Positions 38,193 through 52,028 of a stretch of DNA of 52,030 bases are shown here, in pieces. Below the pieces are notes generated by a model, which was given only the letters and a program-made list of their open reading frames with translations, was not told the origin of the DNA and did not search any database. Within the stretch, counting starts at the first letter, position 1. Every line of letters starts with the position of its first letter. The DNA is from Candidatus Thorarchaeota archaeon (lineage in GTDB: Archaea > Asgardarchaeota > Thorarchaeia > Thorarchaeales > Thorarchaeaceae), in contig RDNZ01000010.1 of the NCBI GenBank assembly GCA_011364905.1, forward strand, positions 1-52,030, written 5' to 3'. A program made the position numbers and the translations under genes.

Positions 38193-38699
38193 CTAATCCT
38201 GATGCGAGAGATTACGGAGCTCTTGGGTCTCAAGGAAGTTGTCCATGACAAACATTGTTAGTGTCCTATCTACCGCAGGCAACTCTCGAAGGAATCCCAC
38301 AATGAACTGGTTCATCTCTTGAACATCCGTAGTGCGGACTTTCAGGAAAACATCGTATTGGCCGCTCAAGACATAGACCTCCTGCACGAAGGGATGTTTT
38401 GCTATCTCTTGACAGAACTTTCTCTGTGATACCAGATCAGGTTCCCCAGGAACACGATATCTAATTGTGACAAAAATCAAAGCGAGAGTCGGTCGATTGA
38501 GCAACACGGGATCGAGAATAGCACTATATTGTTTGATTATCTTGTCCTCCTCAAGTGCTTTGATTCTTGCATGCACCGTTGAGATACCCTTACCAACAGC
38601 TTCGGATATTCTCTGTACACCGAGCTTGCAGTCCTCCTGCAGCAATTCCAAAATCTTGAGGTTGATTTCATCGATTGTAGATTGACGCGTTTTTGACAT
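38193..38699 (-). CDS. Lrp/AsnC-family transcriptional regulator
   Basis: IDEINLKILELLQED...STVHARIKALEE HTH; LSGQYDVFLKV RAM domain. Confidence 0.95.
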   Translation of the reverse strand: MSKTRQSTIDEINLKILELLQEDCKLGVQRISEAVGKGISTVHARIKALEEDKIIKQYSAILDPVLLNRPTLALIFVTIRYRVPGEPDLVSQRKFCQEIAKHPFVQEVYVLSGQYDVFLKVRTTDVQEMNQFIVGFLRELPAVDRTLTMFVMDNFLETQELRNLSHQD

Positions 38700-38959
38700 G
38701 CTACCACGTTCCGAAAAGTATTCGGGAATAGGGGCAATTCATCGAAATTCTTGATAAATATTCCTCAATATTGTGAGTGTTGTGCAGACGAGAAGAAATG
38801 CGTATCTCGGGGCGGGTTTTCGAAAAAGATGCATTTTTTGTAACGAGGAAAGACATAGAGAAATGCAGGAGATTCTGACAGATTGACCGAAAAGATTTCA
38901 CATCGAATCCGATAAGAGTTAATACTCCCGTGTGGTGGTCTATCTTTTCTGTGGTTGAT

Positions 38960-41320
38960 TTGGAGTACGGAAAATTCTCTGAAGACAACAAAGAGTACAT
39001 CATAACTAGACCTGATACTCCAACCCCCTGGATCAACTACCTCGGAAATAGTGAATACTGCGCGATGATCTCGAACACAGCTGGAGGCTTCAGTTTTCAT
39101 ATAGACCCGAGAAATAGGCGAATCACACGGTATCGATACAACAATATGCCGACCGATAGGCCCGGGAGGTATATCTACATTCGAGACAGTAAGACTGGGG
39201 AATGCTGGTCTCCCACATGGCAACCTACGCTCTCAAAACTTGACGGTTATGAGTGTAGGCACGGTCTCGGATACACGAAATTCACGTCCTCCATCTCAGG
39301 TATTGAAGCCAAAGTAACCTATTTCGTACCCCCAGATAGCAACGTGGAGATCTGGGTGCTGACACTCAAGAACACATCATTGTCCCAAGACAGATGGCTT
39401 AAGGTATTCTCATACTGCGAGTTCTGTCTATGGGAAGCGCCTCGGGACCAAAATGATTTGCAGTCTATCCAGTTTCTCGGGATCTCGCGCTTCAACAACA
39501 ATGCAGTCCTCTATCATTTCTTTGATGAGAGTACGGGATTTGCATTTTTCGCATCGAGTGAAAAAATATGCAGCTATGATTGTAATAGAGAGTCATTCAT
39601 TGGAAAATATCGTGACGAATCCAATCCTGAGGCCGTGGAGATTGGTGAGTGCTTCAGGTCAGAGGCTGTTGGAGGAAATCCGATTGCAGCTACCGCCAGC
39701 TCAGTTTCCCTTGAACCGCTAGAGGAAAAAACCATCATCTACGTACTCGGTGTTTCTCAAGACAAGTCAGAGATTGATTCGCTTATCCGAGAGTTCACTG
39801 ACAAGGAAAATGTAGAGAAGGAATTTCAGAAATTAAGAGACCACTGGGAATCCTTTCTCAGCAAGGTGAATACTAAAACAGAGGACCTTGATTTTGATGC
39901 GATGGTTAATGTCTGGAATCAGTACCAGTGCCGAATTACATTCGACTGGTCACGATATGTTTCCTTCTATGAAACAGGAATTGGCAGAGGCATGGGCTTT
40001 CGAGACTGTGCTCAAGATGTAGTCGGAGTAGTTCACGCATTTCCACAGAGAGTCAGACAAAGAATAACTAGCCTCGCAAAGAACCAATTTCAAGATGGAC
40101 ATGTCTATCATATCTACTTCCCACTCACAGGAGAGGGGGGGTTCCCATACTACGTAAAGAAGGATATGCAATTCTTCAGTGATGACCATCTGTGGTTGAT
40201 ACCTTCTGTGACGGAATATATCAAGGAAACGGGAGACACTAGTATTCTTGAGGAGAAAGTGGAGTTCGTTGATGGTCCACCTGCCACCATCTATGAGCAC
40301 ATGCAGAAGTCAATTGAGTTTTGCAAGAGTATGCTAGGGAAACATGACCTTCCTCTTCTTGGAACTGCTGATTGGAATGATCCGTTGAGTCTTCCTGGTC
40401 CAAATAACGCAGCTGAGAGTGTCTTCGCGGCCATGCTGCTTCACAAGTCACTCACTGAGATGTCGGAGGTAAGCAGTCAAACGGGAAGGGGAACTGAATC
40501 TACCACCTACAAGAAATTAGCTAAGAAGACCAGAAACCACCTGAACAAGGTAGCATGGGATGGAGACTGGTTCATCCGTGCCTTTGATGACTCGGGCAGT
40601 CCCCTTGGAAGCAAGGAGTGCAAAGAGGGAAAGATCTACCTCAATGCACAGTCATGGTCTATTCTCAGTGGTGTTGCATCACATGAAAGAGGCATCAAAT
40701 CTATGGATGCTGTCAAAGAGAATCTTGATACAAAGTATGGATTGATTCTTTTGAAGCCAGCATATTCAAGATATTACAAAGAAATTGGAGCCTTGTCAAG
40801 CTATGCACCGGGTCTGAAAGAGAATGCATCAATATGGAGTCACGCAAATGCATGGGCCATCATTGCAGAATGCATGTTAGGAAGAGGCGACCAGGCGTAT
40901 GAGTACTACAAGAAACTAGCGCCTCCATCTAAGAATGGTATGGCTTCAATCCACCAGGCTGAACCCTATGTGTATGCCCAGACCATTGCTGGAATAGACC
41001 ATTCCGCGTTTGGCATGGCAAGACAGTCATGGCTCACTGGTACAGCAGCATGGATGCTGAAAGCTGCTACAAACTGGATCCTTGGTGCAAGACCCCAATA
41101 TCACGGATTACTTGTTGATCCATGTATACCATCGTCGTGGAGGAGTTTCAGGATGACTCGTCAGTTTAGAGGCGCAACATATGATATCAAGTTCTCTAAT
41201 CCCTTAGGGATTTCAAAGGGCATTGAAGCTATTCATGTGGATGATAAGCTGTTCGAGAACAATCTGCTCCCTACGTTCTCTGATGGTAAAACGCATAAGA
41301 TATCAATCACAATGGGCTAG
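38960..41320 (+). CDS. GH94 glycoside phosphorylase (cellobiose phosphorylase-like)
   Basis: EYIITRPDTPTPWINYLG, RYRYNN, GIGRGMGFRD..QD, ADWND, KENASIWSH, SWLTGTAAW. TTG 38960 chosen as start. Confidence 0.93.
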   Translation: MEYGKFSEDNKEYIITRPDTPTPWINYLGNSEYCAMISNTAGGFSFHIDPRNRRITRYRYNNMPTDRPGRYIYIRDSKTGECWSPTWQPTLSKLDGYECRHGLGYTKFTSSISGIEAKVTYFVPPDSNVEIWVLTLKNTSLSQDRWLKVFSYCEFCLWEAPRDQNDLQSIQFLGISRFNNNAVLYHFFDESTGFAFFASSEKICSYDCNRESFIGKYRDESNPEAVEIGECFRSEAVGGNPIAATASSVSLEPLEEKTIIYVLGVSQDKSEIDSLIREFTDKENVEKEFQKLRDHWESFLSKVNTKTEDLDFDAMVNVWNQYQCRITFDWSRYVSFYETGIGRGMGFRDCAQDVVGVVHAFPQRVRQRITSLAKNQFQDGHVYHIYFPLTGEGGFPYYVKKDMQFFSDDHLWLIPSVTEYIKETGDTSILEEKVEFVDGPPATIYEHMQKSIEFCKSMLGKHDLPLLGTADWNDPLSLPGPNNAAESVFAAMLLHKSLTEMSEVSSQTGRGTESTTYKKLAKKTRNHLNKVAWDGDWFIRAFDDSGSPLGSKECKEGKIYLNAQSWSILSGVASHERGIKSMDAVKENLDTKYGLILLKPAYSRYYKEIGALSSYAPGLKENASIWSHANAWAIIAECMLGRGDQAYEYYKKLAPPSKNGMASIHQAEPYVYAQTIAGIDHSAFGMARQSWLTGTAAWMLKAATNWILGARPQYHGLLVDPCIPSSWRSFRMTRQFRGATYDIKFSNPLGISKGIEAIHVDDKLFENNLLPTFSDGKTHKISITMG

Positions 41321-41358
41321 TCATCAAACAAAAAGGGAGAGAATGAGGAAGAAAAAAG

Positions 41359-42459
41359 ATGGAGCAAAACAATGACTCTCGGGTGAATGAAGAGAACTCA
41401 CAAACGCCTATGACGGAAGAATCATCATCTGGGAACTCTTTATCGAAGTTGAAGGAGGTGCTCCTAAGTTCATATGCCAAATTTGTGGCAAGGAAGGCTG
41501 CCTTCTATGTGGTTGTCATATTTTTCTCAGTTTCATTGGTGTTCTTCGTTATTGAGGCAATGCCGGGTGATCCGGTAGAGGTGATGCTTGCTAGCGGAAA
41601 TCCCCCGCCCGGAGCTGACTTAGCTGCCTTGGCAGAAATCATGAGGCGATACTTCGGTTTGGACAAACCAATACTAGAACGATACATCGACTTTCTTGGG
41701 AATTTCTTCACCGGCAACCTGGGACAGTCTTATCACTTTTACCCAGTTTATGCTTGGACTATAATCCAATACTACTTGCCTTACACTCTGTCCCTGGCAC
41801 TTCCCGTGTTATTCGTCAGTTTCTTTGTGGGAAACTGGATTGGTGCTAGAGCAGCCTATCTTAAGGGCAAACTAAACGAAACAAGTTACTTCACGCTGGT
41901 TTTCTGCAACCAGTTACCGCCCTTTTGGCTAGGATTAGTCATCATATTCCTGTATGTATTGTTATTCCGCAATATCCCGCCAATTGGGGCTGCAACACAG
42001 GGTGTAATACCCTCTTTGAGCGTCAGCTACTTGGTGGATCTTTTGGCCCACTGGATTTTGCCTTTCCTGACATTGCTGGTGGTGTACATCGGTGCTTGGG
42101 CTACTGGAATGAGATCAATGGTGACTCATGAAATGGATTCAGGCTATGTACGATATGGCGAGCAGCTAGGCTTTAAGAAAAGGAAACTGATGTCCTATAC
42201 TCAGAGAAACGCCATCCTTCCACAGCTAACCGGTCTAAACATGGTTTTCAATGGCATCATTGGGCAGACACTAGTAATCGAGATTGTCTTTGGGTGGCCG
42301 GGGATTGGCCTGTTGCTCTTTAACGCCGTGTTTAATTACGATTATCCCCTAATTTTTGGCTGCTTTTTGGTCATAATTATCATCATTGTTGTGGGAAACT
42401 TTCTGATAGACATTCTCTACGGCTTTATAGATCCAAGAATCAGAACAGGGCATGGGTGA
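41359..42459 (+). CDS. ABC transporter permease (OppB/DppB type)
   Basis: MPGDP, GNLGQS, EIVFGWPGIG, DILYGFIDPRIR. Confidence 0.93.
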   Translation: MEQNNDSRVNEENSQTPMTEESSSGNSLSKLKEVLLSSYAKFVARKAAFYVVVIFFSVSLVFFVIEAMPGDPVEVMLASGNPPPGADLAALAEIMRRYFGLDKPILERYIDFLGNFFTGNLGQSYHFYPVYAWTIIQYYLPYTLSLALPVLFVSFFVGNWIGARAAYLKGKLNETSYFTLVFCNQLPPFWLGLVIIFLYVLLFRNIPPIGAATQGVIPSLSVSYLVDLLAHWILPFLTLLVVYIGAWATGMRSMVTHEMDSGYVRYGEQLGFKKRKLMSYTQRNAILPQLTGLNMVFNGIIGQTLVIEIVFGWPGIGLLLFNAVFNYDYPLIFGCFLVIIIIIVVGNFLIDILYGFIDPRIRTGHG

Positions 42460-43301
42460 TAGAAATGTGGGAGCTGTTACTAAAAAGTCGGAAAGCAATA
42501 TTTGGATTGGTGGTTTTGATTGTATTCATTCTTCTTGGCACTGTGGGTCCTCTCTTTGTCGGAGACCCGTACAACATGAACCTAAACCAAATGGGTCGGC
42601 CCCCCAGCCTTGCGCACATTCTTGGTACTACAAGTTTCGGGCAAGATGTCTTTGCTCAGCTGTGTAATGCCGTGGGCAACTCGCTCTTAGTCGGACTAGT
42701 AGCCGGTGTTTTGGGCACTCTAATCGCGGTATTCGTTGGTGCTGTGGGCCCGTACATAGGGGGGTTGGCTGACAGAATTTCCAACCTAGTCACCAATCTT
42801 GCGCTGGTATTGCCTCTTATACCACTCTTCATAATCATCGCATCGGTTGTGCGCGGGCTGAACTTAGTCCTCATTGGTATTATACTAGCTGTGACAGCAT
42901 GGCCATGGGCAGCAAGGAGCATAAGGTCCCAGATGCTCACCCTGAAAGAAAGAGAGTTCGTGAATCTAGCTCGAATGTCTGGAGATAGGGCGGTTCGGAT
43001 AGTGGTGACGGAAATCCTACCTAATATGATGGCCTATATCATGATGGTCTTCGTAATATTGACTGGTACAGCTATACTAACTGAGTCAGCACTCAGCATG
43101 ATTGGCGTTTCCACTACCCCAACAATCACTTTGGGGTATATGCTGTATTGGGCTCAGCATGAAACGATTGTTCCCTTCTGGTGGAATATCTGGTGGTGGT
43201 TTATTCCTCCAGGAATCGTGTTAACGGTCATATTGACTGCGTTTTTCGTCATCCATGCGGGCTTGGATGAGGTATTCAATCCAAAATTACGGAGGGTTTG
43301 A
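42456..43301 (+). CDS. ABC transporter permease (OppC/DppC type)
   Basis: PPSLAHILGTTSFGQD, REFVNLAR.SG, EILPN, FNPKLR. Confidence 0.93.
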   Translation: MIEMWELLLKSRKAIFGLVVLIVFILLGTVGPLFVGDPYNMNLNQMGRPPSLAHILGTTSFGQDVFAQLCNAVGNSLLVGLVAGVLGTLIAVFVGAVGPYIGGLADRISNLVTNLALVLPLIPLFIIIASVVRGLNLVLIGIILAVTAWPWAARSIRSQMLTLKEREFVNLARMSGDRAVRIVVTEILPNMMAYIMMVFVILTGTAILTESALSMIGVSTTPTITLGYMLYWAQHETIVPFWWNIWWWFIPPGIVLTVILTAFFVIHAGLDEVFNPKLRRV

Positions 43302-43307
43302 TCGCAC

Positions 43308-44318
43308 ATGACGGAACACATTCTCGAAGTCGAAGATCTCAGGGGATACTACAGAGGGGTGTTCGGCGTCGTTCGTGCCATTGATGGAGTTTCCTTTAAT
43401 TTGGACCGAGGAACAATAATGGGTATTGCAGGCGAATCGGGCGGTGGCAAGTCAACACTCGCCCAACTTGTTTCAGGATCGCCACCCCCGTTGCTACATC
43501 GTGAGGGAGGAAGAATCTTAGTCGATGGGATTGATATATACAACATTGATCCTGAAGAACTTAGAACTGAGGTAAAATGCAAGCGCATGTCGTATGTCCC
43601 TCAGGCTTCAATGGAATCTCTAAATCCTGTTAAAAGGATAAGAGATTTCATCTTTGATGTTGTCGGACAACGAACTGGCAGAAGAGTGCGCTCAAAAGAG
43701 CGGAAAGCAGAGATTCTTGAAATGGCGGCGAACCACGTCAAGACGCTGGGATTGAACAGCTCAGTTCTGGATCTGTATCCACACGAACTTAGTGGCGGGA
43801 TGAAACAAAGGGTTGTTATTGCTATATCGACACTGTGGAACCCTAAGCTTCTTGTAATAGACGAGCCCACCTCCGCTCTCGATGTTACTTCACAAAAACG
43901 GATGATAAAAGCGCTATTGAAGCTGAAACGAGCTGGAATAATCGAAAGCATGCTATACATCTCTCATGACTTGACAAGTCTAAGGCAGTGTTGCGCCAGA
44001 AGCATGGTCATGTATGCAGGAAAGGTCGTTGAAATAGGCAGCATGGATGAAACAATAAACGACCCTCTACATCCGTATTCCCAATTGCTTGGAGCTGCAA
44101 TCGCGTCTTATGACCCCAAAGGAAGGAGACAAGACACTCTTCAGAGCATCCCTGGTTCTCCTCCAGACCTGAGAAATCCTCCATCTGGCTGTAGGTTTCA
44201 TCCAAGATGTCCCTATGCAATGGACATCTGTAAAACCACAGATCCGCCGATGTTCACAGTTGGAAATGGAAGCAGGCAAGCTGCATGTTGGTTATTAAAA
44301 TCAAAAGCGGGTGAGTGA
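43308..44318 (+). CDS. ABC transporter ATP-binding protein (OppD type)
   Basis: GESGGGKST, LSGGMKQR, DEPT, GCRFHPRCP. Confidence 0.95.
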   Translation: MTEHILEVEDLRGYYRGVFGVVRAIDGVSFNLDRGTIMGIAGESGGGKSTLAQLVSGSPPPLLHREGGRILVDGIDIYNIDPEELRTEVKCKRMSYVPQASMESLNPVKRIRDFIFDVVGQRTGRRVRSKERKAEILEMAANHVKTLGLNSSVLDLYPHELSGGMKQRVVIAISTLWNPKLLVIDEPTSALDVTSQKRMIKALLKLKRAGIIESMLYISHDLTSLRQCCARSMVMYAGKVVEIGSMDETINDPLHPYSQLLGAAIASYDPKGRRQDTLQSIPGSPPDLRNPPSGCRFHPRCPYAMDICKTTDPPMFTVGNGSRQAACWLLKSKAGE

Positions 44319-45141
44319 AATGATAAACGAAGATGTGACTGGAAGCGATGATGTTCTCCTAAAGTGCGAGAACCTGACGAAGATATACACTTCTGGCCTC
44401 ATAAGAACAAAGACTGTCGCAGGCGCGAAGAACGTGTCTTTTAACATTAAGAAAGGAGAAATTGTTTCTCTCGCAGGGGAAAGCGGAAGCGGAAAGTCAA
44501 CCGTGGCCAAAATGATCCTGATGCTACTTCGACCGACTTCAGGACACATCTTTCTCAACGGCAAGGACATTTCTTTGTACAACATTCGAGATTATTACAG
44601 GCAGGTACAAGCAGTGTTTCAGGACCCTTACTCTGCATTCAATCCATTCTACAAGGTCGATCATGTAATAAGCAGAGCCTTTGGCCTCCGCCAGGATAAT
44701 CCAGACGAAGATGAAAGAAAAGAGATTATCGAATCCACCTTTCTGTCCATTGGACTAAACCCCAGCGAAGTGCTGGGTAGGTATCCTCACGAACTAAGCG
44801 GTGGCCAGATGCAGAGACTGTTGATTGGAAGGTCGCTCCTCATAGGTTCACAGCTTTTGATAGCCGATGAGCCTACATCCATGATAGATGCATCCACTCG
44901 AGCTGGTGTCTTGAACCTATTACTTCGCCTGAAAGAGAAGGAGGGCCTATCTGTACTATTCATTACGCACGACATTGGTCAAGCCCAGTACGTTTCTGAG
45001 AGAGTCCTTATCATGAAGGAAGGAGAAATTGTCGAACAGGGCTCTGTCAATGATGTCTTCACCAATCCGAATCATCCATACACTCAGGAACTTCTTGCAT
45101 CAGTGCCGAGCTTGTATGAAAAATGGGAAGAACTCACGTAA
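44311..45141 (+). CDS. ABC transporter ATP-binding protein (OppF type)
   Basis: GESGSGKST, LSGGQMQR, ADEPTS, HPYTQEL. Confidence 0.95.
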   Translation: MSEMINEDVTGSDDVLLKCENLTKIYTSGLIRTKTVAGAKNVSFNIKKGEIVSLAGESGSGKSTVAKMILMLLRPTSGHIFLNGKDISLYNIRDYYRQVQAVFQDPYSAFNPFYKVDHVISRAFGLRQDNPDEDERKEIIESTFLSIGLNPSEVLGRYPHELSGGQMQRLLIGRSLLIGSQLLIADEPTSMIDASTRAGVLNLLLRLKEKEGLSVLFITHDIGQAQYVSERVLIMKEGEIVEQGSVNDVFTNPNHPYTQELLASVPSLYEKWEELT

Positions 45142-45418
45142 GATTCCCAAGGAACTGGTGAGTTTTTCATAGGGGTTGCCCTCAGATACTAAAAAAACAC
45201 ATGAATCTAGCTCTTTTTTTTCAATTGTGCTTTGAAACAGGCTGTACTCCTTCTTTGATTGCATCATAGAAACAACAATGAACACCTTCCGACATTCCAG
45301 TTTTTTCAGCAATTCGATGCTTTGGCCAGAGATTTTTCGTCAAAACTCTGTAAATTCTTATGTATTCCTCTCAGGCATTTTATCTAATCGCGGAAACACT
45401 TAGGAGGAGATATCCCAA

Positions 45419-47401
45419 GTGAAAAGAGGAAATAAGGTTGCAACCACTATGGTCATCAGTATCATAATGGCTGCAATGATTTTATCCAGTTTCTGTTCAA
45501 AGCCAGTCGTCGCACAAACCTCCGTACCAAGAGACGAAACAGTGTGGGGGGCTGGTTTCGGAATGAACACTGGAAGCTACCAACCCTGGAACATGGGCTC
45601 AAACCAAGGCTGGACAACCTACCTGATGTATGAACCTATGTTTGGGACAAATGTAGCAACAGGAGAAATCATCGGCTGGCTGGGTGATACCATCGATTGG
45701 CAAGGCGATGACATTGTTCAAATAACGCTGAGAAGCGATCTTCACTGGACTTCAATAGGCAGTAACCTCGTTTCGAATTCCACAGCCATCACAACTGATG
45801 ATGTCATCTATTCCTTCGAAATTCTCCAGCAGACCGGTCAACTAGGCTCTCTGGTCCAGAGAGTTGGAAATGTCAGCACAGCATTTGAAAAAGTGAGCGA
45901 TACGGTTTTGAATGTACATATTCTTCCATCATACGCAGGAAGCAGTGAGGTCTACCGCCAACTAACTTATGGCTTTCTCATATTTCCAAAGGCAGTATGG
46001 CAAGACATCAATACAACATATTCTGGTGATCTGTCAACATTCACTAATGATTGGCAAGACACCCAGATGGTTCCTGCAAAGTGGAGGGTCGCATCAGGCA
46101 TGTACCTGCCATACTTCCATGATGCTACGAGCACGATTGGGAAGGTCAACGATAACTGGTGGGGTGTTGATGATACAGACTTTGGCAGACTACCCGAACC
46201 AACATATTTCGGGTACACATCATACTCCAGTAATGACCTTGCACTCCTCGCAATGGAAGGCGGAGATCTTGATTGGGATGGCAACTATCTTGCAGGATTG
46301 ACTCAAGTCAAGACACAATACCCGAATATAGTGACTTACTTCGATGACCTGCCATACTTCCCAGACAAGTCCCCAGTGATGCTTGTTCCAAACTACAAGA
46401 ACTACCCGCTGAATCAAACTTGGCTCCATAAAGCCATGGCTTCGGTTCTGAACTACACCGCTATGAGCGCGGTCTCGAGCGGATACTTGAAGGATCCTAG
46501 CCCTATGCTGATTCCAGCGGATGACGCAGCAGCCAGAGCACTACTGAATACGACGATTGAATCCGAATACGCAATCACCTACGATGTGGCGCATGCTATC
46601 GACATTCTGGAAACATATTGCACCTTTGACGATACATCTGGCGTCTGGTGGACTAAGGAGGGTGTCACACCTAGTGATCCCATCCAGCACTATCCGCTCC
46701 AAGAGTGGAACTTCGAGTCCAACACCACTGCTCCATATACAATCCTTGACTTTATGGGGTGGACAGACGTCAATGCCATGGATCAGGTAGCAGCTCAGGC
46801 ATTCTCCAGCTTACTCCACATTAACACTCAGGTGGAGTTCATCAGCGGCTGGGGTACTGTCCAAGTAAGGATGAACAATTTCCAGTTCGACCTTGCTGAT
46901 ATGGTCATGTCTGGTCAAATCAACATGAACATGTACGAGCGCTACTTCCAGATGTTCTCACCTCAGAGCTCGAGCGCTGGCGGAGGAGTGAATGCACCTC
47001 TGGGCGGCTGGTATAATCAGACATTTATCGATGACATCGAGGCTCTTGACACCTTCCCAGCTGGATCAGCTCAGCAATGGGCTGTCGCTAATGAGATGCA
47101 AGAGATTCTTGGTCAAGTCATGCCGGTTATACCATTAGCAGGACATGCTGACTGGCAAATCTATAGCACAACATATTGGGACAACTGGCCCAACAGTGTT
47201 ACAAATCCAATGCTACCAAGTAGTCCTTTCGCTGGCACAACGCAGAATGCAAACCTGCTGGCTATTGTCTTTGGGTTGGAATCTACAGGAGCTACGACAC
47301 CACCTCCACCAGGAGATAACTTACTTCTCTATGCGGGAATTGGAATCGCCGTCTTGGTGGTCGTTGTAGTAATCGTCCTGTACGTGCGTAGACAAGAGTA
47401 A
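45419..47401 (+). CDS. Family 5 ABC solute-binding protein, probably binding beta-glucosides/cello-oligosaccharides
   Basis: Signal peptide, VPRDETV, MYEPMF, ITTDDVIYSF, PVIPL, YWDNWP; C-terminal TM; GGAGGAG RBS; gene context. Confidence 0.88.
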   Translation: MKRGNKVATTMVISIIMAAMILSSFCSKPVVAQTSVPRDETVWGAGFGMNTGSYQPWNMGSNQGWTTYLMYEPMFGTNVATGEIIGWLGDTIDWQGDDIVQITLRSDLHWTSIGSNLVSNSTAITTDDVIYSFEILQQTGQLGSLVQRVGNVSTAFEKVSDTVLNVHILPSYAGSSEVYRQLTYGFLIFPKAVWQDINTTYSGDLSTFTNDWQDTQMVPAKWRVASGMYLPYFHDATSTIGKVNDNWWGVDDTDFGRLPEPTYFGYTSYSSNDLALLAMEGGDLDWDGNYLAGLTQVKTQYPNIVTYFDDLPYFPDKSPVMLVPNYKNYPLNQTWLHKAMASVLNYTAMSAVSSGYLKDPSPMLIPADDAAARALLNTTIESEYAITYDVAHAIDILETYCTFDDTSGVWWTKEGVTPSDPIQHYPLQEWNFESNTTAPYTILDFMGWTDVNAMDQVAAQAFSSLLHINTQVEFISGWGTVQVRMNNFQFDLADMVMSGQINMNMYERYFQMFSPQSSSAGGGVNAPLGGWYNQTFIDDIEALDTFPAGSAQQWAVANEMQEILGQVMPVIPLAGHADWQIYSTTYWDNWPNSVTNPMLPSSPFAGTTQNANLLAIVFGLESTGATTPPPPGDNLLLYAGIGIAVLVVVVVIVLYVRRQE

Positions 47402-47415
47402 GTAGACACAAGAGA

Positions 47416-47460
47416 GGAGATTGTTGACGAAAAGTCACAGTCTCCAATCTTTTTCTTTAT
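47416..47460 (+). terminator. Stem-loop plus T-tract after the SBP gene
   Basis: GGAGATTG-T-TGAC-GAAAA-GTCA-CAGTCTCC then TCTTTTTCTTT. Confidence 0.65.
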
Positions 47461-47491
47461 GCTGACTTTTGTGTTCTCTCAACAATAAGGA

Positions 47492-49873
47492 CTATTCACG
47501 ATTTCTTAGAGCATGTTCAATTGCCCAGATTGAAAGAGGACGCATGTACATGGAAGCTCGGAAGTTGGTTTCCTCAGTCCAAGCCTCTGGTGTTCGGAAC
47601 CAGTAACCTCGTTCCTTGTAGGTCGTGTCATAGATACCAAATGCTGTCTTCATTCCCTGATCCAGAAGACCAGCATGAATCATAAAAGCGGCAAGTGCGT
47701 ATGTCGTTCCGGTCCAGACCTCTGAACTTTGCGCGCAGGTGTTGTCTGGAGTTCCATCTGGACGCATTCCGTTCACTGCTCCTATCTGACCAAGCTGAAA
47801 TCTCAGAACATTGAAATTGTAGATTGTTTGCAAGGCAGAAAGCTCATTCTTCTCTGGAACTATACGAGGCAGACCACAAACATGCATGTACCACTGTCCC
47901 GATAGCTGATCAGCCATGATACTATCATGGTGCCTCGAGGTGCTGCTATCAAAGTCATAATACCGACCATTCCAGAGCTTCTCCTCGAAACTCCGTTGGC
48001 CATTCCTTAGGATAATCTGGTACTTCTTCTCAACTCCTTCATCCCCGAGAATATGGGCCATCGCAATCATTGCTTGTGTGGCACCGAGGTAGAGACTACC
48101 ACAATATGCGCTAGGTCCTTCCATTCTCCAGTTATCATAGGTCTGATCAGGAAACCCTTCATTCTCAGGAAGACCGTCGTTATCTTGATCAAAATTGTCA
48201 AGATACTCCATGGCTTGCTTCAATGCAGACCAACAAGACTTCAGGAATCTTTCATCCTTTGTGAAGACATAGTTCCTATAGACCTGAAGGATGAATTTCG
48301 AGTTGAGGTCTTTCCATCTTCCGCAGTCAAGATATGCATAGGCATTTGTCATATACCACGGGTCTTCCTGAGGCATTCCTAAGTCATGAGGAACGGCACC
48401 TCTCGGCTTTCTAGGAACTACATTCTTGTTAACCAGCAGGGTGTGTGGCGTATCATCTTCAATGTTGATAGCGTCTGCAAAATCTTTCTGGATATTGTTA
48501 TCAAGTTCAGGCCAGTTCATCAATGTGGCAAATGAAGCATAGTATAGAACATCGTACGTGTTATAGTAGGGATACTCAAAACATTCAAGATAACCAAAGT
48601 GACCCAAGCCTCTAACATCTACCTTCTTATCAACTTCTCCGACAACCCATGCTGAACTGCTATCTACTAGGAAGTACAGCTCATTCAGAAGTCCAGACTT
48701 GAGCCACGTGGGTCGATCTGATTCCACAATTGGTCGTTGCCAGTCTTCGATCAGGGTATTCCAAGCTCGCCAGTTGTTGAGTGCAGTTGTCACGAGTGGA
48801 ATAGCATACTCGCCCTCAGTGCCAAAGAATTTGGTGTAGTATTTGTACCATCTCCTGCCCTCGCCAAACTGGATGATGGGGATATCCCAGCTGAGTGCAA
48901 AGACAATCTCAGTGGATTCCTCAGGCTCTAGCTCGACTTTCGCACATAGAGCTCCTCCCTCCTTGTGAGGCATCTTCGTTGGCTTCGGTTCAGATTCCTG
49001 CAGTACTCCATTCTTCTTGAAGCTCCTCCATAACCTACGACCCTTTGATTCTGTATTGAATCGTGTGAGGCTTGTTAACTCAGCCTTGTCGGAGGCTTGA
49101 ATTCCCATACCGAACGTGACAGGACTTGCTGCCTCAGTTCGTTCTTGGCGAAGCTCGAGGAGAAGTCGATTTGGGCTCTGGCAATCAACACGTGCATGGG
49201 TGCAGTCGATTGGTGGTTGTGTTGGGGATACCGCATTTTCCCAGGTGAACATCAGAGATATGCCAAGTTTCTTGTCAACGACATTTGTCAGTTTCCAAGC
49301 AAACACGCCAACGGGGTAGGAACTCTCCTGATAGTTGTTACCAATTACTGGAGAAAGCTGCTGACAGACCGCTTTGATACCAGCATCGCTGAAGTTGTAT
49401 GTTGTCCATGCTCTAGGAAAAAGTGCGTGATAAGTGGCTCTTGAGGCTCGCATCCCCCAACTCCAAGAATTCAGCCGCGACCCATCAGGTGTTCTTGGAT
49501 TCAGTGTCTGAAGAAATGGTCTGCCCATGCCCTCAATCCTCAGGTGGAATTGGTTCGGGAGAGACGGGTGATATTCATGGGCTCCAGTTCTCAGATGCCA
49601 TCTGGCAAAGTCACCTCTGAATCCGCGTCCAATACTTCCACACCCAAGCCCTCCAATTGGAATTCCCTGATTGTAACCGTCATCTATGGGTTTCGTTGGT
49701 GGGCAGGGAAGCATCTCCCAGAATTGCTCATCGAGATCAATTGGGACCTCAGCCAATGTAGGCCAGACCATACTCGGTTCAAGCTCCATGGGATAGCTTC
49801 TTGGCCTTCCGGGGCGGAGTGGTCCTTCATTCAGTGAAAGGGTCCATGCGCAATCAGGAATCTGAAAGGTCAT
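47492..49873 (-). CDS. GH116 beta-glucosidase (GBA2 / non-lysosomal glucosylceramidase family)
   Basis: GIPIGGLGCGSIGRG, YLECFEY..YNTYDV, PHDLG, WKDLNSKF, PDQTYD, SSEVWTG, FRTPEA, YMRPLSIW. ATG 49873 chosen as start. Confidence 0.95.
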   Translation of the reverse strand: MTFQIPDCAWTLSLNEGPLRPGRPRSYPMELEPSMVWPTLAEVPIDLDEQFWEMLPCPPTKPIDDGYNQGIPIGGLGCGSIGRGFRGDFARWHLRTGAHEYHPSLPNQFHLRIEGMGRPFLQTLNPRTPDGSRLNSWSWGMRASRATYHALFPRAWTTYNFSDAGIKAVCQQLSPVIGNNYQESSYPVGVFAWKLTNVVDKKLGISLMFTWENAVSPTQPPIDCTHARVDCQSPNRLLLELRQERTEAASPVTFGMGIQASDKAELTSLTRFNTESKGRRLWRSFKKNGVLQESEPKPTKMPHKEGGALCAKVELEPEESTEIVFALSWDIPIIQFGEGRRWYKYYTKFFGTEGEYAIPLVTTALNNWRAWNTLIEDWQRPIVESDRPTWLKSGLLNELYFLVDSSSAWVVGEVDKKVDVRGLGHFGYLECFEYPYYNTYDVLYYASFATLMNWPELDNNIQKDFADAINIEDDTPHTLLVNKNVVPRKPRGAVPHDLGMPQEDPWYMTNAYAYLDCGRWKDLNSKFILQVYRNYVFTKDERFLKSCWSALKQAMEYLDNFDQDNDGLPENEGFPDQTYDNWRMEGPSAYCGSLYLGATQAMIAMAHILGDEGVEKKYQIILRNGQRSFEEKLWNGRYYDFDSSTSRHHDSIMADQLSGQWYMHVCGLPRIVPEKNELSALQTIYNFNVLRFQLGQIGAVNGMRPDGTPDNTCAQSSEVWTGTTYALAAFMIHAGLLDQGMKTAFGIYDTTYKERGYWFRTPEAWTEETNFRASMYMRPLSIWAIEHALRNRE

Positions 49874-50078
49874 AGTTTGATCTCCATGGGGAGCACCAAT
49901 CCTATTGGGTGTCTGATGCAAAATGTAGTACACACGCCGATTAAGGACTTTCTATTCGAAGGATGGCACACGTGAACAACCACTTCTTCTGCTTCTCACT
50001 AAATTGATGTTTTTCCGAAAAATTTTCATATCTTGACATATTTTAACCGAAATTTATGAAAATAATTCGTGTTATTTA

Positions 50079-50093
50079 CAGGAAAATATTATA
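50079..50093 (+). promoter_or_regulatory. Putative BRE/TATA promoter of glnA
   Basis: CAGGAAA-ATATTATA; archaeal spacing predicts a TSS near 50116-50118. Confidence 0.55.
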
Positions 50094-50115
50094 GGCTTTT
50101 GAGATGGTGAAAGTC

Positions 50116-50204
50116 TGAGAGACACTATTGCCCTACGGATTGATTATAGAAACCTATTGAGTTTCTAAACCCCCAGGGTCCGCATGTCAGGGCAATATCT
50201 CTCA
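50116..50204 (+). ncRNA. Candidate structured cis-regulatory RNA in the glnA 5' leader
   Basis: TGAGAGA/TCTCTCA and TATTGCCCT/AGGGCAATA outer stem; CGGATT/GGTCCG inner stem; TAGAAAC/GTTTCTA hairpin. Confidence 0.55.
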
Positions 50205-50242
50205 TCTTCTCCTCCCAATCAGGACCACAGAGGTTCCCCTAG

Positions 50243-51547
50243 ATGAGCGAAATTCACGAACAACCAGAATTCCTTAGACTGATCTTCACAGATCTTCTTG
50301 GACATACAAAAAGCATTGAGGTTGGGTTTGACAGACTTGATGAAGTTGTTGAACATGGCCTTGTGATTGATGGGTCCTCTGTGCCTGGTTACTCGTGTGT
50401 AAATGAAAGTGATGTTCTTCTTCTCCCTTCAGGCGCCGCCACTCCACTTCTTCAACCATGGGACAGATCAGCGGCATTTCTTCTTTGTCGAGTTCATGAC
50501 GTTTCAGGCAGTCCTCATCCAAGGGATCCGAGATATATACTTCAGAGAGTAGCTGAAAGAGCCTTGAAGAGTGGCTTGAAACTCATGGTTGGCGCAGAGC
50601 TTGAGTTTTTTGCTGTAGGTAGAGAATCAGGACATGGTATCGAGCCACTCGACAGCGGAGGCTACTTCTCCACTCAGCCGCAGGACATTGCGCTTGATTT
50701 CAGGAGAGACGCCATGCGAACTTTGAGAGTGATGGGTGTCGGTACAACTTCGCACCATCATGAGGTGGCGCGTGGTCAGCAAGAGATTGGGCTTCAGTAT
50801 GCAGATGCTGAGACTGCCGCAGACCGCATTATGATTGCACGAATGGTCATCTCAGAGATGGCGTATAGGAGAGGGATGATCGCTACATTCATGCCAAAGC
50901 CATTTTCAGACCAGAACGGCTCAGGAATGCATCTGCATCAGAGTGTCTGGGACGACCATGGAATCCAGAACCTCTTTGCATCCACCGAAGAAGGAGCGCT
51001 TTCTGAACTCGCTTTGAGATACATTGGAGGGCTCCTTGAACATGCGGTCACCATCGCAGCAATCCTTGCTCCCACCGTGAACTCGTATAAGAGACTAGTG
51101 CCTGGCTTTGAAGCTCCCACACGAGTGGCATGGGGTTACAGAAACAGGAGTACAATGGTCCGTGTGCCTCATTTCAACGGATCGGATAAAGCCGCAAGAA
51201 TCGAACTCCGTTGCCCAGATGGTTCATCCTCCCCTCATCTTGTGATTGCAGCTATGCTTGCATCAGGTTTGGATGGTATTGAAAGAGGAATTGAGCCACC
51301 AGATCCAACAGATAAGGACCTCTATGAGTCTGGAGTTGTTATGAAGTCGCTCCCAGGCTCATTGGAGTTGGCCCTCACGGAACTGAGTAGGAGTTCTATC
51401 ATGCGAAAGGAACTTGGTGACTCAGTCGTGGAAACTCTAGTAGCCCTCCGGAGGCGTGAGTGGAAAAACTATATCGATTCAACAGGAAACCCTGGAAGCT
51501 CCGAAATCACAGAGTGGGAAATTGAGAGATACTTGCAAGCAAACTAG
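50243..51547 (+). CDS. glnA: Glutamine synthetase type I
   Basis: DGSSV, GAELEFF, HHEVA..QQEI, TFMPKP...NGSGMHLHQS, NSYKRLVPGFEAP, NRS..VRVP, RIELRCPD. Confidence 0.93.
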   Translation: MSEIHEQPEFLRLIFTDLLGHTKSIEVGFDRLDEVVEHGLVIDGSSVPGYSCVNESDVLLLPSGAATPLLQPWDRSAAFLLCRVHDVSGSPHPRDPRYILQRVAERALKSGLKLMVGAELEFFAVGRESGHGIEPLDSGGYFSTQPQDIALDFRRDAMRTLRVMGVGTTSHHHEVARGQQEIGLQYADAETAADRIMIARMVISEMAYRRGMIATFMPKPFSDQNGSGMHLHQSVWDDHGIQNLFASTEEGALSELALRYIGGLLEHAVTIAAILAPTVNSYKRLVPGFEAPTRVAWGYRNRSTMVRVPHFNGSDKAARIELRCPDGSSSPHLVIAAMLASGLDGIERGIEPPDPTDKDLYESGVVMKSLPGSLELALTELSRSSIMRKELGDSVVETLVALRRREWKNYIDSTGNPGSSEITEWEIERYLQAN

Positions 51548-51602: not shown

Positions 51603-52028
51603 ATGATGACTGGCTTTGAAAGCAAGGAACAGTTTGAGAAAGTATTCAACAAGTTTTGGGAGAAAGCAACTCAAAATCCAGAAGTCATGGAGAAGCTTAC
51701 GAAGGCAAAGATTATTGTCCGCTTCGACATAGAAGAGCCAGAGGTGCATATGACTATCAATTTTAGAGACCCGGGTCCAAATGGAGAGATTGGCACATTA
51801 TCATTTGATAGTGATGTCACCCCAGAGATCATTGTCTGGTCAAAGTCGGAAACAACAAACAAGTTTTGGCAGGGAAAACTCAACACTACTGTGGCCCTTG
51901 CCAGGGGGCAGGTCAAACTGAATGGGTCAGTAGCAAAAGCGCTCGGATTGCTGTCAAAGATTAAACCGCTCTATGCAGTATATCCAGAGGTCCTTAAGGA
52001 GCTGGAACTTGACGGTCTGGTATTATAG
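51603..52028 (+). CDS. SCP2 sterol/lipid-binding domain protein
   Basis: KFWQGKLN...ALARGQVKLNGSVAKALGL; GGAGGT RBS before ATG 51603. The track's 51456 start overlaps glnA. Confidence 0.88.
   Translation: MMTGFESKEQFEKVFNKFWEKATQNPEVMEKLTKAKIIVRFDIEEPEVHMTINFRDPGPNGEIGTLSFDSDVTPEIIVWSKSETTNKFWQGKLNTTVALARGQVKLNGSVAKALGLLSKIKPLYAVYPEVLKELELDGLVL

Follow-up and report, generated by a model that had tools for sequence, protein, structure and literature searches.

A covarying three-way-junction leader on the glutamine synthetase mRNA of one Thorarchaeota genus

The leader of an archaeal glutamine synthetase gene invites comparison with structured mRNA leaders of several kinds. In bacteria, three-partner translational leaders, built from a Shine-Dalgarno (SD) sequence, an anti-SD and an anti-anti-SD, occur as translational riboswitch platforms and RNA thermosensors, while 5'-terminal stem-loops act as mRNA stabilisers, among them the 5' untranslated region (UTR) of Escherichia coli ompA and the Bacillus aprE and ermC leaders. 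Protein-gated structured leaders are represented by the iron-responsive element (IRE) with its iron regulatory protein (IRP) and by the lineage-specific leaders of ribosomal proteins (S15), and in Methanosarcina mazei the small RNA (sRNA) sRNA154 acts on glnA1 mRNA. Glutamine riboswitches (RF01739, RF01704), likewise structured elements in 5' leaders, are linked to nitrogen assimilation and to control of glutamine synthetase (GS), and act, or are proposed to act, on translation; they are bacterial (cyanobacteria, marine bacteria), about 60 nt long and contain a pseudoknot (PMC2864571, PMC6212724), and the cyanobacterial ones control the GS-inactivating factor gifB, not glnA (PMC6212724). The element described here, in the leader of the GS gene glnA near the end of a 52,030-nt stretch of Candidatus Thorarchaeota DNA (hereafter the window), resembles them in the target process and in its proposed level of action, but it is an archaeal three-way junction of 90-105 nt placed directly on glnA. 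Cis-regulatory RNAs are very sparsely documented in archaea and our literature searches found none described for Asgard archaea; full-text searches returned no Asgard riboswitch and no archaeal glnA leader RNA.

The segment 50117-50204 folds as a three-way junction in which a rod of two stacked helices, P1a and P1b, closes two small hairpins, P3 and P4 (Table 1). An earlier note, made from the letters of the window, had drawn P1a, P1b and a TAGAAAC/GTTTCTA hairpin; all three are exact inverted repeats at the positions it gave and all are contained in the minimum free energy (MFE) fold, together with the CAC bulge, part of a further proposed helix (P2) and an extra CCC/GGG hairpin. Shuffling, which the note had suggested as a check of stability, bore the fold out, with an MFE for 50116-50204 (89 nt) of -30.8 kcal/mol as compared to -17.8 +/- 3.1 kcal/mol for dinucleotide shuffles (z = -4.19). 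The 3-nt bulge (CAC, 50123-50125) and the ribosome-binding site (RBS; AGAGGT, 50229-50234) are likewise visible in the sequence, and the pyrimidine tract that the note had placed before the RBS does exist, but it is specific to this genome. P2 (CGGATT 50136-41 with GGTCCG 50177-82) had to be abandoned, being only partly used in the fold and absent from all 28 other orthologous leaders, in which its 5' side is A/U-rich and variable; the hairpin overlooked was P4 (CCC 50170-72 with GGG 50176-78). The leader element forms an independent folding domain in all 22 complete 5' UTRs. Downstream of it, the SD reads AGAGG in 18 of 21 orthologues and GAGG or GGAGG in two more, and within it 24 of 29 sequences have CCGCAC in the joining strand J4/1, 20 of them exactly and the others with one base changed.

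Evidence that this structure is maintained at the RNA level comes from the genus to which the genome belongs (g1). A glnA orthologue with a conserved start codon (protein 62-75% identical) is present in 20 other g1 genomes, and all 21 orthologous upstream regions align across the leader, so that the conservation in relatives on which the earlier note had made its proposal depend was found, as were compensatory base changes among the genus orthologues. From these 21 aligned regions we built a covariance model, R1 (100 positions, 23 pairs). Pairing was counted over 28 distinct sequences in an alignment fitted to the model, and the figures therefore favour the structure: standard pairs occupy 93% of cells, as compared to 32-55% when the 3' partners are slid by 1-3 columns, and ten pairs, including eight of the nine in P1b, show changes on both sides. 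Among 500 shuffles none reached the observed value for four of five measures, and 8 did so for the fifth (further pair types). The MAFFT alignment alone already contained six compensatory pairs, and an all-against-all scan of column pairs in the leader alignment gave noise only. R1 scored 51-97 bits on the sense strand versus 17-31 bits on the antisense; this drop by a factor of three to four, together with the G-U pairs in P1b, places the structure on the glnA sense strand.

Constraint is distributed unevenly over the element. Pairwise identity reaches 0.99 in P1a (GAGAG/CUCUC), 0.98 in the P3 core (GAAAC/GUUUC) and 0.97 in P4 (CCC/GGG), as against 0.70 in P1b, 0.45-0.60 in junctions and loops (0.45-0.55 in the junction strands) and 0.36 at fourfold-degenerate sites of invariant glnA residues, which are saturated. 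Given such saturation of synonymous sites, the near-full identity of P1a, P3 and P4 indicates that about 26 nt are frozen in sequence, and beside these frozen stems the long helix P1b changes by compensation. The P3 loop varies between 4 and 7 nt, a variation tolerable for an RNA hairpin and not for a dimeric DNA site, which argues for an RNA rather than a DNA element; the same loop lengths would break any frame and exclude a conserved reading frame across the leader. Altogether, the element very probably functions in cis, at the RNA level, in the glnA mRNA.

R1 matched 23 of the 28 genus genomes, at a single locus in each and always 31-40 nt upstream of the glnA ATG (51-97 bits). In the five genomes without a match the orthologue is either absent (G012, G016, G041) or cut by a contig end (G004, G042), and six additional glnA orthologues on metagenome contigs also carry the element. 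It was not found in the other 58 genomes of the family (15 genera), nor in a sample of 151 genomes of the phylum. The window's own genome holds one copy by both BLAST and the covariance model, and the element is single-copy in every genome tested, which disposes of the concern, raised by the earlier note, that it might be a dispersed repeat resembling a miniature inverted-repeat transposable element (MITE). One genus member departs from the usual arrangement: in G011 (locus L054, G011:C203 810-1472, minus strand) the leader, whose J4/1 is the most divergent (GCGCGU), precedes a glnA remnant, a 56-aa open reading frame (ORF) with about 41 matching residues that runs directly into the usual downstream SCP2-domain gene, reflecting either an internal glnA deletion or an assembly artefact.

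Comparison with catalogued RNAs yielded no relative. No Rfam 15 family matched the window segment 49900-50400 at E <= 10 or the 20 orthologous loci at E <= 5, and the models of the two bacterial glutamine motifs, glnA RNA and Downstream-peptide, both failed, as the earlier note had judged by eye. ARAGORN reported no tRNA gene in 49900-50400, leaving no tRNA-like element there. The sRNA NsiR4 (RF02677) scored 18.3 bits against a gathering score of 40 on a stretch (CGGATTGATTAT) that is unconserved, with no match in the 20 loci; SNORD57 on the minus strand (20 bits) and fragments of long non-coding RNAs were chance matches to window-specific parts. Judged from these searches, the element is a new, uncatalogued motif confined to one Thorarchaeota genus and belonging among structured cis-acting mRNA leaders.

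The 5' end of the element lies where the promoter predicts the transcript to begin. The glnA promoter is shared across the family, with the box GAAATACTTTC, a sequence resembling the B recognition element (BRE), CAGGAAAA, and a TATA box (A/T)TATAG; its blocks line up when the 22 genus leaders are right-aligned on the first GAGAG, and in the g25 orthologues, predicted to be leaderless, they stand at the same distance from the ATG as they do from GAGAG in g1. Calibrated on those orthologues, promoter spacing puts the predicted +1 at G50117, the first base of P1a, in agreement with the earlier note, which had let the element start at a predicted transcription start. The covariation of P1b, which requires both strands on one transcript, further implies that transcription begins upstream of 50126.

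Table 1. Features of the glnA promoter, leader and gene in the window (P, paired region; J, joining strand).
Feature	Position	Strand	Remarks
Palindromic box CCGAAAAATTTTC	50015..50027	.	Remnant; second CCGAAA half-site at 50048-50053; from alignment of 21 upstream regions
Box GAAAATAATTC (family consensus GAAATACTTTC)	50058..50068	.	About 10 nt upstream of BRE; fixed position in g1, g18, g15, g17, g25
BRE/TATA (AGGAAAA TATTATAG) of glnA	50080..50094	+	Block 22-26 nt from first GAGAG in 22 genus leaders
Predicted transcription start, first G of GAGAG	50117 (+/-2 nt)	+	Promoter geometry
P1a 5' strand (T)GAGAGA	50116..50122	+	Core GAGAG invariant, 100% of cells paired; SD-like
Bulge CAC	50123..50125	+	Variable 3x3 to 4x4 internal loop in orthologues
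P1b 5' strand TATTGCCCT	50126..50134	+	Both-side changes in 8/9 pairs, 28 distinct sequences
J1/3, A/U-rich, variable	50135..50146	+	Pairwise identity 0.49; includes non-conserved P2 5' arm
P3 hairpin TAGAAAC-CTATTGA-GTTTCTA	50147..50167	+	Stem core GAAAC/GUUUC invariant; loop variable, 4-7 nt
P4 hairpin CCC-CCA-GGG	50170..50178	+	Stem invariant across genus; loop variable
J4/1 TCCGCATGTC	50179..50188	+	Semi-conserved CCGCAC motif (CCGCAT here); pairwise identity 0.55 in model-fitted alignment
P1b 3' strand AGGGCAATA	50189..50197	+	Exact inverted repeat of 5' strand; covariation
P1a 3' strand TCTCTCA	50198..50204	+	Core CUCUC invariant; anti-SD-like (16S 3' end ...CACCUCCU)
Variable linker	50205..50228	+	16-25 nt in orthologues
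SD AGAGGT	50229..50234	+	8 nt before ATG; complementary to 16S 3' end GGATCACCTCCT
glnA, GS, 434 aa	50243..51547	+	Pfam Gln-synt_N + Gln-synt_C; start codon conserved in 21 orthologues

The output of the element most probably lies downstream of transcription. Neither a terminator-like site nor a T-run follows P1, making transcription attenuation unlikely, and control of glnA after transcription is very likely. Barring the 5' strands of P1 (the first 24 nt) from pairing lifts the mean pairing probability between the CUCUC strand and the SD from 0.06 to 0.46. In this state CUCUC is predicted to pair with AGAGG at a probability above 0.5 in half of the orthologues (11 of 22) and of 0.98 in the window, at a cost of about 12 kcal/mol relative to the native fold. 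Such computed pairings are consistent with an arrangement of three partners (decoy, anti-SD and SD) that would constrain all three segments and could thus account for the lack of variation in GAGAG, CUCUC and AGAGG, whereas the gap of about 12 kcal/mol disfavours a switch driven by a small ligand alone.

We propose that the element would act on translation and/or mRNA lifetime and not on transcription. The rod would conceal the 5'-triphosphate end of the glnA mRNA and keep the anti-SD-like CUCUC duplexed with the 5'-terminal decoy GAGAG, a sequestration that would leave the true AGAGG, about 25 nt downstream, open to the ribosome. Were the 5' strand to be occupied, unwound or removed, whether by a protein, an sRNA or 5'-end decay, CUCUC would be freed and could mask the RBS, while the stems of P3 and P4, which do not vary, and the junction with CCGCAC may provide the recognition surface for a factor. 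We hold this reading, in which a domain at the 5' terminus shields the mRNA end and prevents the anti-SD from reaching the RBS, with P3, P4 and CCGCAC as the surface for a macromolecular factor, only tentatively, at a probability of roughly 0.4; the decoy/anti-SD logic is one that we infer from modelled pairings, and the effector, itself presumed in existence and nature, is more likely a macromolecule than a metabolite.

Several observations weigh against the proposal. The alternative pairing is beyond the reach of covariation, since GAGAG, CUCUC and AGAGG do not vary; blocking the 5' strand costs about 12 kcal/mol relative to the native fold, and the alternative is predicted in half of the orthologues only. 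In the native fold, moreover, the SD is often partly paired locally, with a mean unpaired probability of 0.3. The binding factor is hypothetical, and invariant Watson-Crick stems with variable loops would be an unusual protein target. Finally, the transcription start is a prediction from promoter geometry, and expression and regulation are presumed.

Set beside the described systems, the proposed layout shares with bacterial three-partner leaders a CUCUC strand complementary to both the 5' decoy GAGAG and the true SD AGAGG, and the freezing of all three segments is what is expected where one strand has two partners. It differs in that the decoy helix, with a 9-bp helix stacked against it, far exceeds the alternative in stability, in that no ligand or temperature logic is evident, and in having an archaeal host. 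With the ompA, aprE and ermC stabilisers the element has in common a helix whose start coincides with the predicted 5' end or lies no more than about 2 nt from it, a trait that recurs in sister genera; those stabilisers, however, are simple hairpins lacking frozen inner hairpins, and their effect has been shown by experiment, whereas here it is predicted. As in the IRE/IRP and S15 systems, a protein could bind the 5'-proximal structure and gate ribosome access, and as with S15-type leaders different lineages (g1, g18, g15, g17) may employ different structures for one job, but in an IRE it is a conserved loop and bulge that the protein recognises, while in this leader loops vary, stems are fixed and the binding protein is hypothetical. 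A possible alternative idea is nonetheless a switch of the IRE type, in which a protein would act on a 5'-terminal mRNA structure; the hosts here are the closest prokaryotic relatives of eukaryotes. Similarly to sRNA154 and glnA1, the element is proposed to exert post-transcriptional control over an archaeal GS mRNA through its 5' region; the regulator in M. mazei is a trans-acting sRNA, while here the conserved element lies in cis and an sRNA partner is hypothetical.

The explanation that comes nearest to the proposed domain is a riboswitch of a new, possibly Asgard-specific class, in which a ligand reporting nitrogen status (glutamine, glutamate, 2-oxoglutarate or an adenine nucleotide) would bind the three-way junction and alter glnA translation through decoy, anti-SD and SD. 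The multi-stem junction with its covarying closing helix and strongly constrained core helices would suit an aptamer, as would the semi-conserved CCGCAC motif (or its one-base variants, in 24 of 29 sequences), the exclusive linkage to a gene in which end-product feedback makes sense, and an SD/anti-SD/decoy arrangement that is the usual layout of translational riboswitch platforms; no known family matches, so the class would have to be new. The pattern of constraint, however, is the reverse of that of typical aptamers, with variable junctions (identity 0.45-0.55, as against 0.36 at neutral sites; among the junction residues only CCGCAC or its variant stands out) and invariant helices, and a P1 of at least 14 bp, which exceeds the alternative in stability by about 12 kcal/mol, appears too stable for a ligand to tip. 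The occurrence once per genome in a single genus also weighs against such a riboswitch, as do the absence of a terminator and of any segment co-evolving with the translation start, and the fact that the glnA orthologues of sister genera are leaderless or have structured leaders unrelated to this one; we consider this explanation unlikely. Comparably doubtful, if slightly more so, is a constitutive 5'-terminal stabiliser, a rod that shields the glnA mRNA from 5'-end-dependent decay and senses nothing. A long helix stands at the predicted +1 in g1, g18 and g15, and about 6 nt after it in g17, despite differing sequences; compensatory changes maintain it, and in the native fold the SD escapes the element's control, all of which a stabiliser would explain. 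It would leave unexplained both the 26 frozen nt of P1a, P3 and P4 beside a freely changing P1b and the retention of the inner three-way junction.

Two further explanations dispense with a functional leader structure. The conserved segments could be DNA operators downstream of the start, bound by a transcription factor such as the neighbouring Lrp/AsnC protein, with an incidental RNA fold: GAAAC...GTTTC shares the GAAA/TTTC half-sites of the promoter box GAAATACTTTC, the Lrp/AsnC gene is a divergent neighbour of glnA in most relatives, and in Halobacterium salinarum the targets listed for Lrp include glnA (PMC2995911). DNA binding, though, has no need of P1b arms that co-vary over about 55 nt or of G-U pairs tolerated on the sense strand only, and it would have to accommodate P3 half-sites spaced by 4-7 nt and P1a arms at a variable distance of 85-95 nt, hence we consider it very improbable. 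No more credible, and the least favoured, is that the structure is a decaying palindromic or MITE-like insertion relic, a product of chance, or a separate small RNA gene. Long terminal inverted repeats do look like MITE ends, and the leader of one g15 species, with near-perfect 18-bp arms that are missing from a congener, looks recently inserted; against this, the element is single-copy in every genome tested and is kept with compensatory changes in a genus whose synonymous sites are saturated, and no terminator or T-run separates it from glnA, as a separate sRNA would call for.

Leaders of three kinds precede the glnA orthologues elsewhere in the family. Leaderless or short-leadered glnA orthologues occur in g25, g22, g19, g26, g27 and one g15 species. 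In g25 (L063, L065-L068, L070, L072) some 23 nt separate the TATA box from the glnA ATG, and the mRNA is predicted to be leaderless because the promoter blocks stand at the +1 distance from the ATG; in g22 (L064, L071, L073) the leader measures about 25 nt. The same gene is thus predicted, from its upstream sequences, to switch between leaderless and SD-led initiation within one family. In g18 (L059-L062) and in G044 of g15 (L081) the leader is long, structured and of another type, with ACAGAG(G)/(C)CUCUGU as its closing helix and a second long helix besides, and it starts at the predicted +1; the leader of g17 (L086-L087) is different again, with a rod that starts about 6 nt after the predicted +1. 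These structures lie about 100-190 nt upstream of glnA, and each is single-copy in its own genome. The g18, g15 and g17 leaders gave no R1 match at E <= 1, and what recurs of the g1 leader at the level of words is confined to an AGAG/CUCU outer helix (g18, g15) and GAAAC/GUUUC (g18); homology with the g1 leader was thus not supported. In a GS tree g1 is monophyletic (100/100) and g18 joins G044 (98/94), while the deeper order, including g1 as sister to g18 plus G044, is not resolved by the tree; the leaders may share a common origin or may have been gained repeatedly. Across the lineages a stable helix recurs at the extreme 5' end, with a purine-rich, SD-like 5' strand (AGAG, GAGGU) and a pyrimidine-rich 3' strand (CUCU, CACCUC) that resembles the 16S 3' end ...GGAUCACCUCCU. 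Within g15, G184, a congener of G044, has no leader, which suggests a recent gain or loss.

A second level of control appears to reside in the promoter. The box at 50058-50068, which we take to resemble the palindromes of the Lrp family, is a probable Lrp-type operator or activator site of the glnA promoter, and the conserved palindromic boxes upstream of the glnA TATA are probably Lrp-type operators too; their presence across the family points to transcriptional control of glnA besides the leader. Most members of the genus have a gene for an Lrp/AsnC-type regulator (~170 aa) next to glnA and divergent from it, with its start some 210 nt upstream, and in relatives the lrp start codon lies inside the palindrome CCGAAA-N4-6-TTTCGG. 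In this genome the lrp orthologue (57% identical; Pfam HTH_AsnC-type, AsnC_trans_reg) is found at 38193-38699 on the minus strand, about 11.5 kb from glnA, with a similar box, CCGAAAAGTATTCGG, upstream of it at 38711-38725; a remnant of the lrp 5' end and the palindromic box are all that remains beside glnA (50015-50053). The block between the two genes (38930-49933, ~11 kb) contains GH94, ABC-transporter (ABC-permease) and GH116 genes, and the GH116 neighbour is also present in G018 and probably in G019. Elsewhere, glnA has been listed as an Lrp target in Halobacterium salinarum (PMC2995911), and glutamine-binding regulators of the Lrp family are on record (PMC3584215).

In this Thorarchaeota genus the central enzyme of nitrogen assimilation has a well-supported structured leader beside a conserved Lrp-type promoter, which suggests two layers of control on GS, one transcriptional and one post-transcriptional. 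The leaderless, short-leadered and rod-bearing glnA orthologues constitute a natural series for comparing leaderless with SD-led initiation, and the same series bears on what 5'-terminal structures contribute to the decay and translation of archaeal mRNAs. At ~95 nt the RNA is small and lends itself to direct in vitro study.

Other possible contacts between the leader and the start of the gene were considered and rejected. Pairing of J4/1 (GCACAU) with the start-codon region (AUGUGC) is confined to one subclade with Cys as the second codon, and no co-evolution of the translation start region was seen with the 3' flank of P1a, J4/1, J1/3 or the P3 loop; cognate leader/start duplexes had no energetic advantage over non-cognate ones (permutation p = 0.17-0.77). 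In the window CUCAUCU (50201-50207) can pair with AGAUGAG (50241-50247) over 7 bp at -10.8 kcal/mol, a pairing that is window-specific and unconserved; it forms the core of a 14-nt complementarity (86% match) between 50194-50207 and 50241-50254, the strongest among the orthologues. A leader peptide was likewise dismissed, as the 20-codon upstream ORF (uORF) at 50184-50246 exists in this genome only and the orthologues stop immediately. This uORF (ATG TCA GGG ...) ends in an ATGA that overlaps the glnA start codon.

The assembly comprises 3.08 Mb in 95 contigs and is 81% complete, and close relatives among public genomes bear the titles Candidatus Thorarchaeota or Promethearchaeota, as metagenome-assembled genomes (MAGs). 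The records listed for the segment 49950-50900 of the window are all DNA metagenome contigs, of sediment, marsh and mangrove origin, with no RNA run among them. The same assembly encodes another GS paralogue (39% identical; contig C30:26589-27878, minus strand), and its short, unstructured leader has no comparable fold; relatives carry two to three GS paralogues. Directly 3' of glnA lies a gene with an SCP2 sterol-carrier-type domain (51603-52028, plus strand), which is also the neighbour in G011, the sole relative checked.

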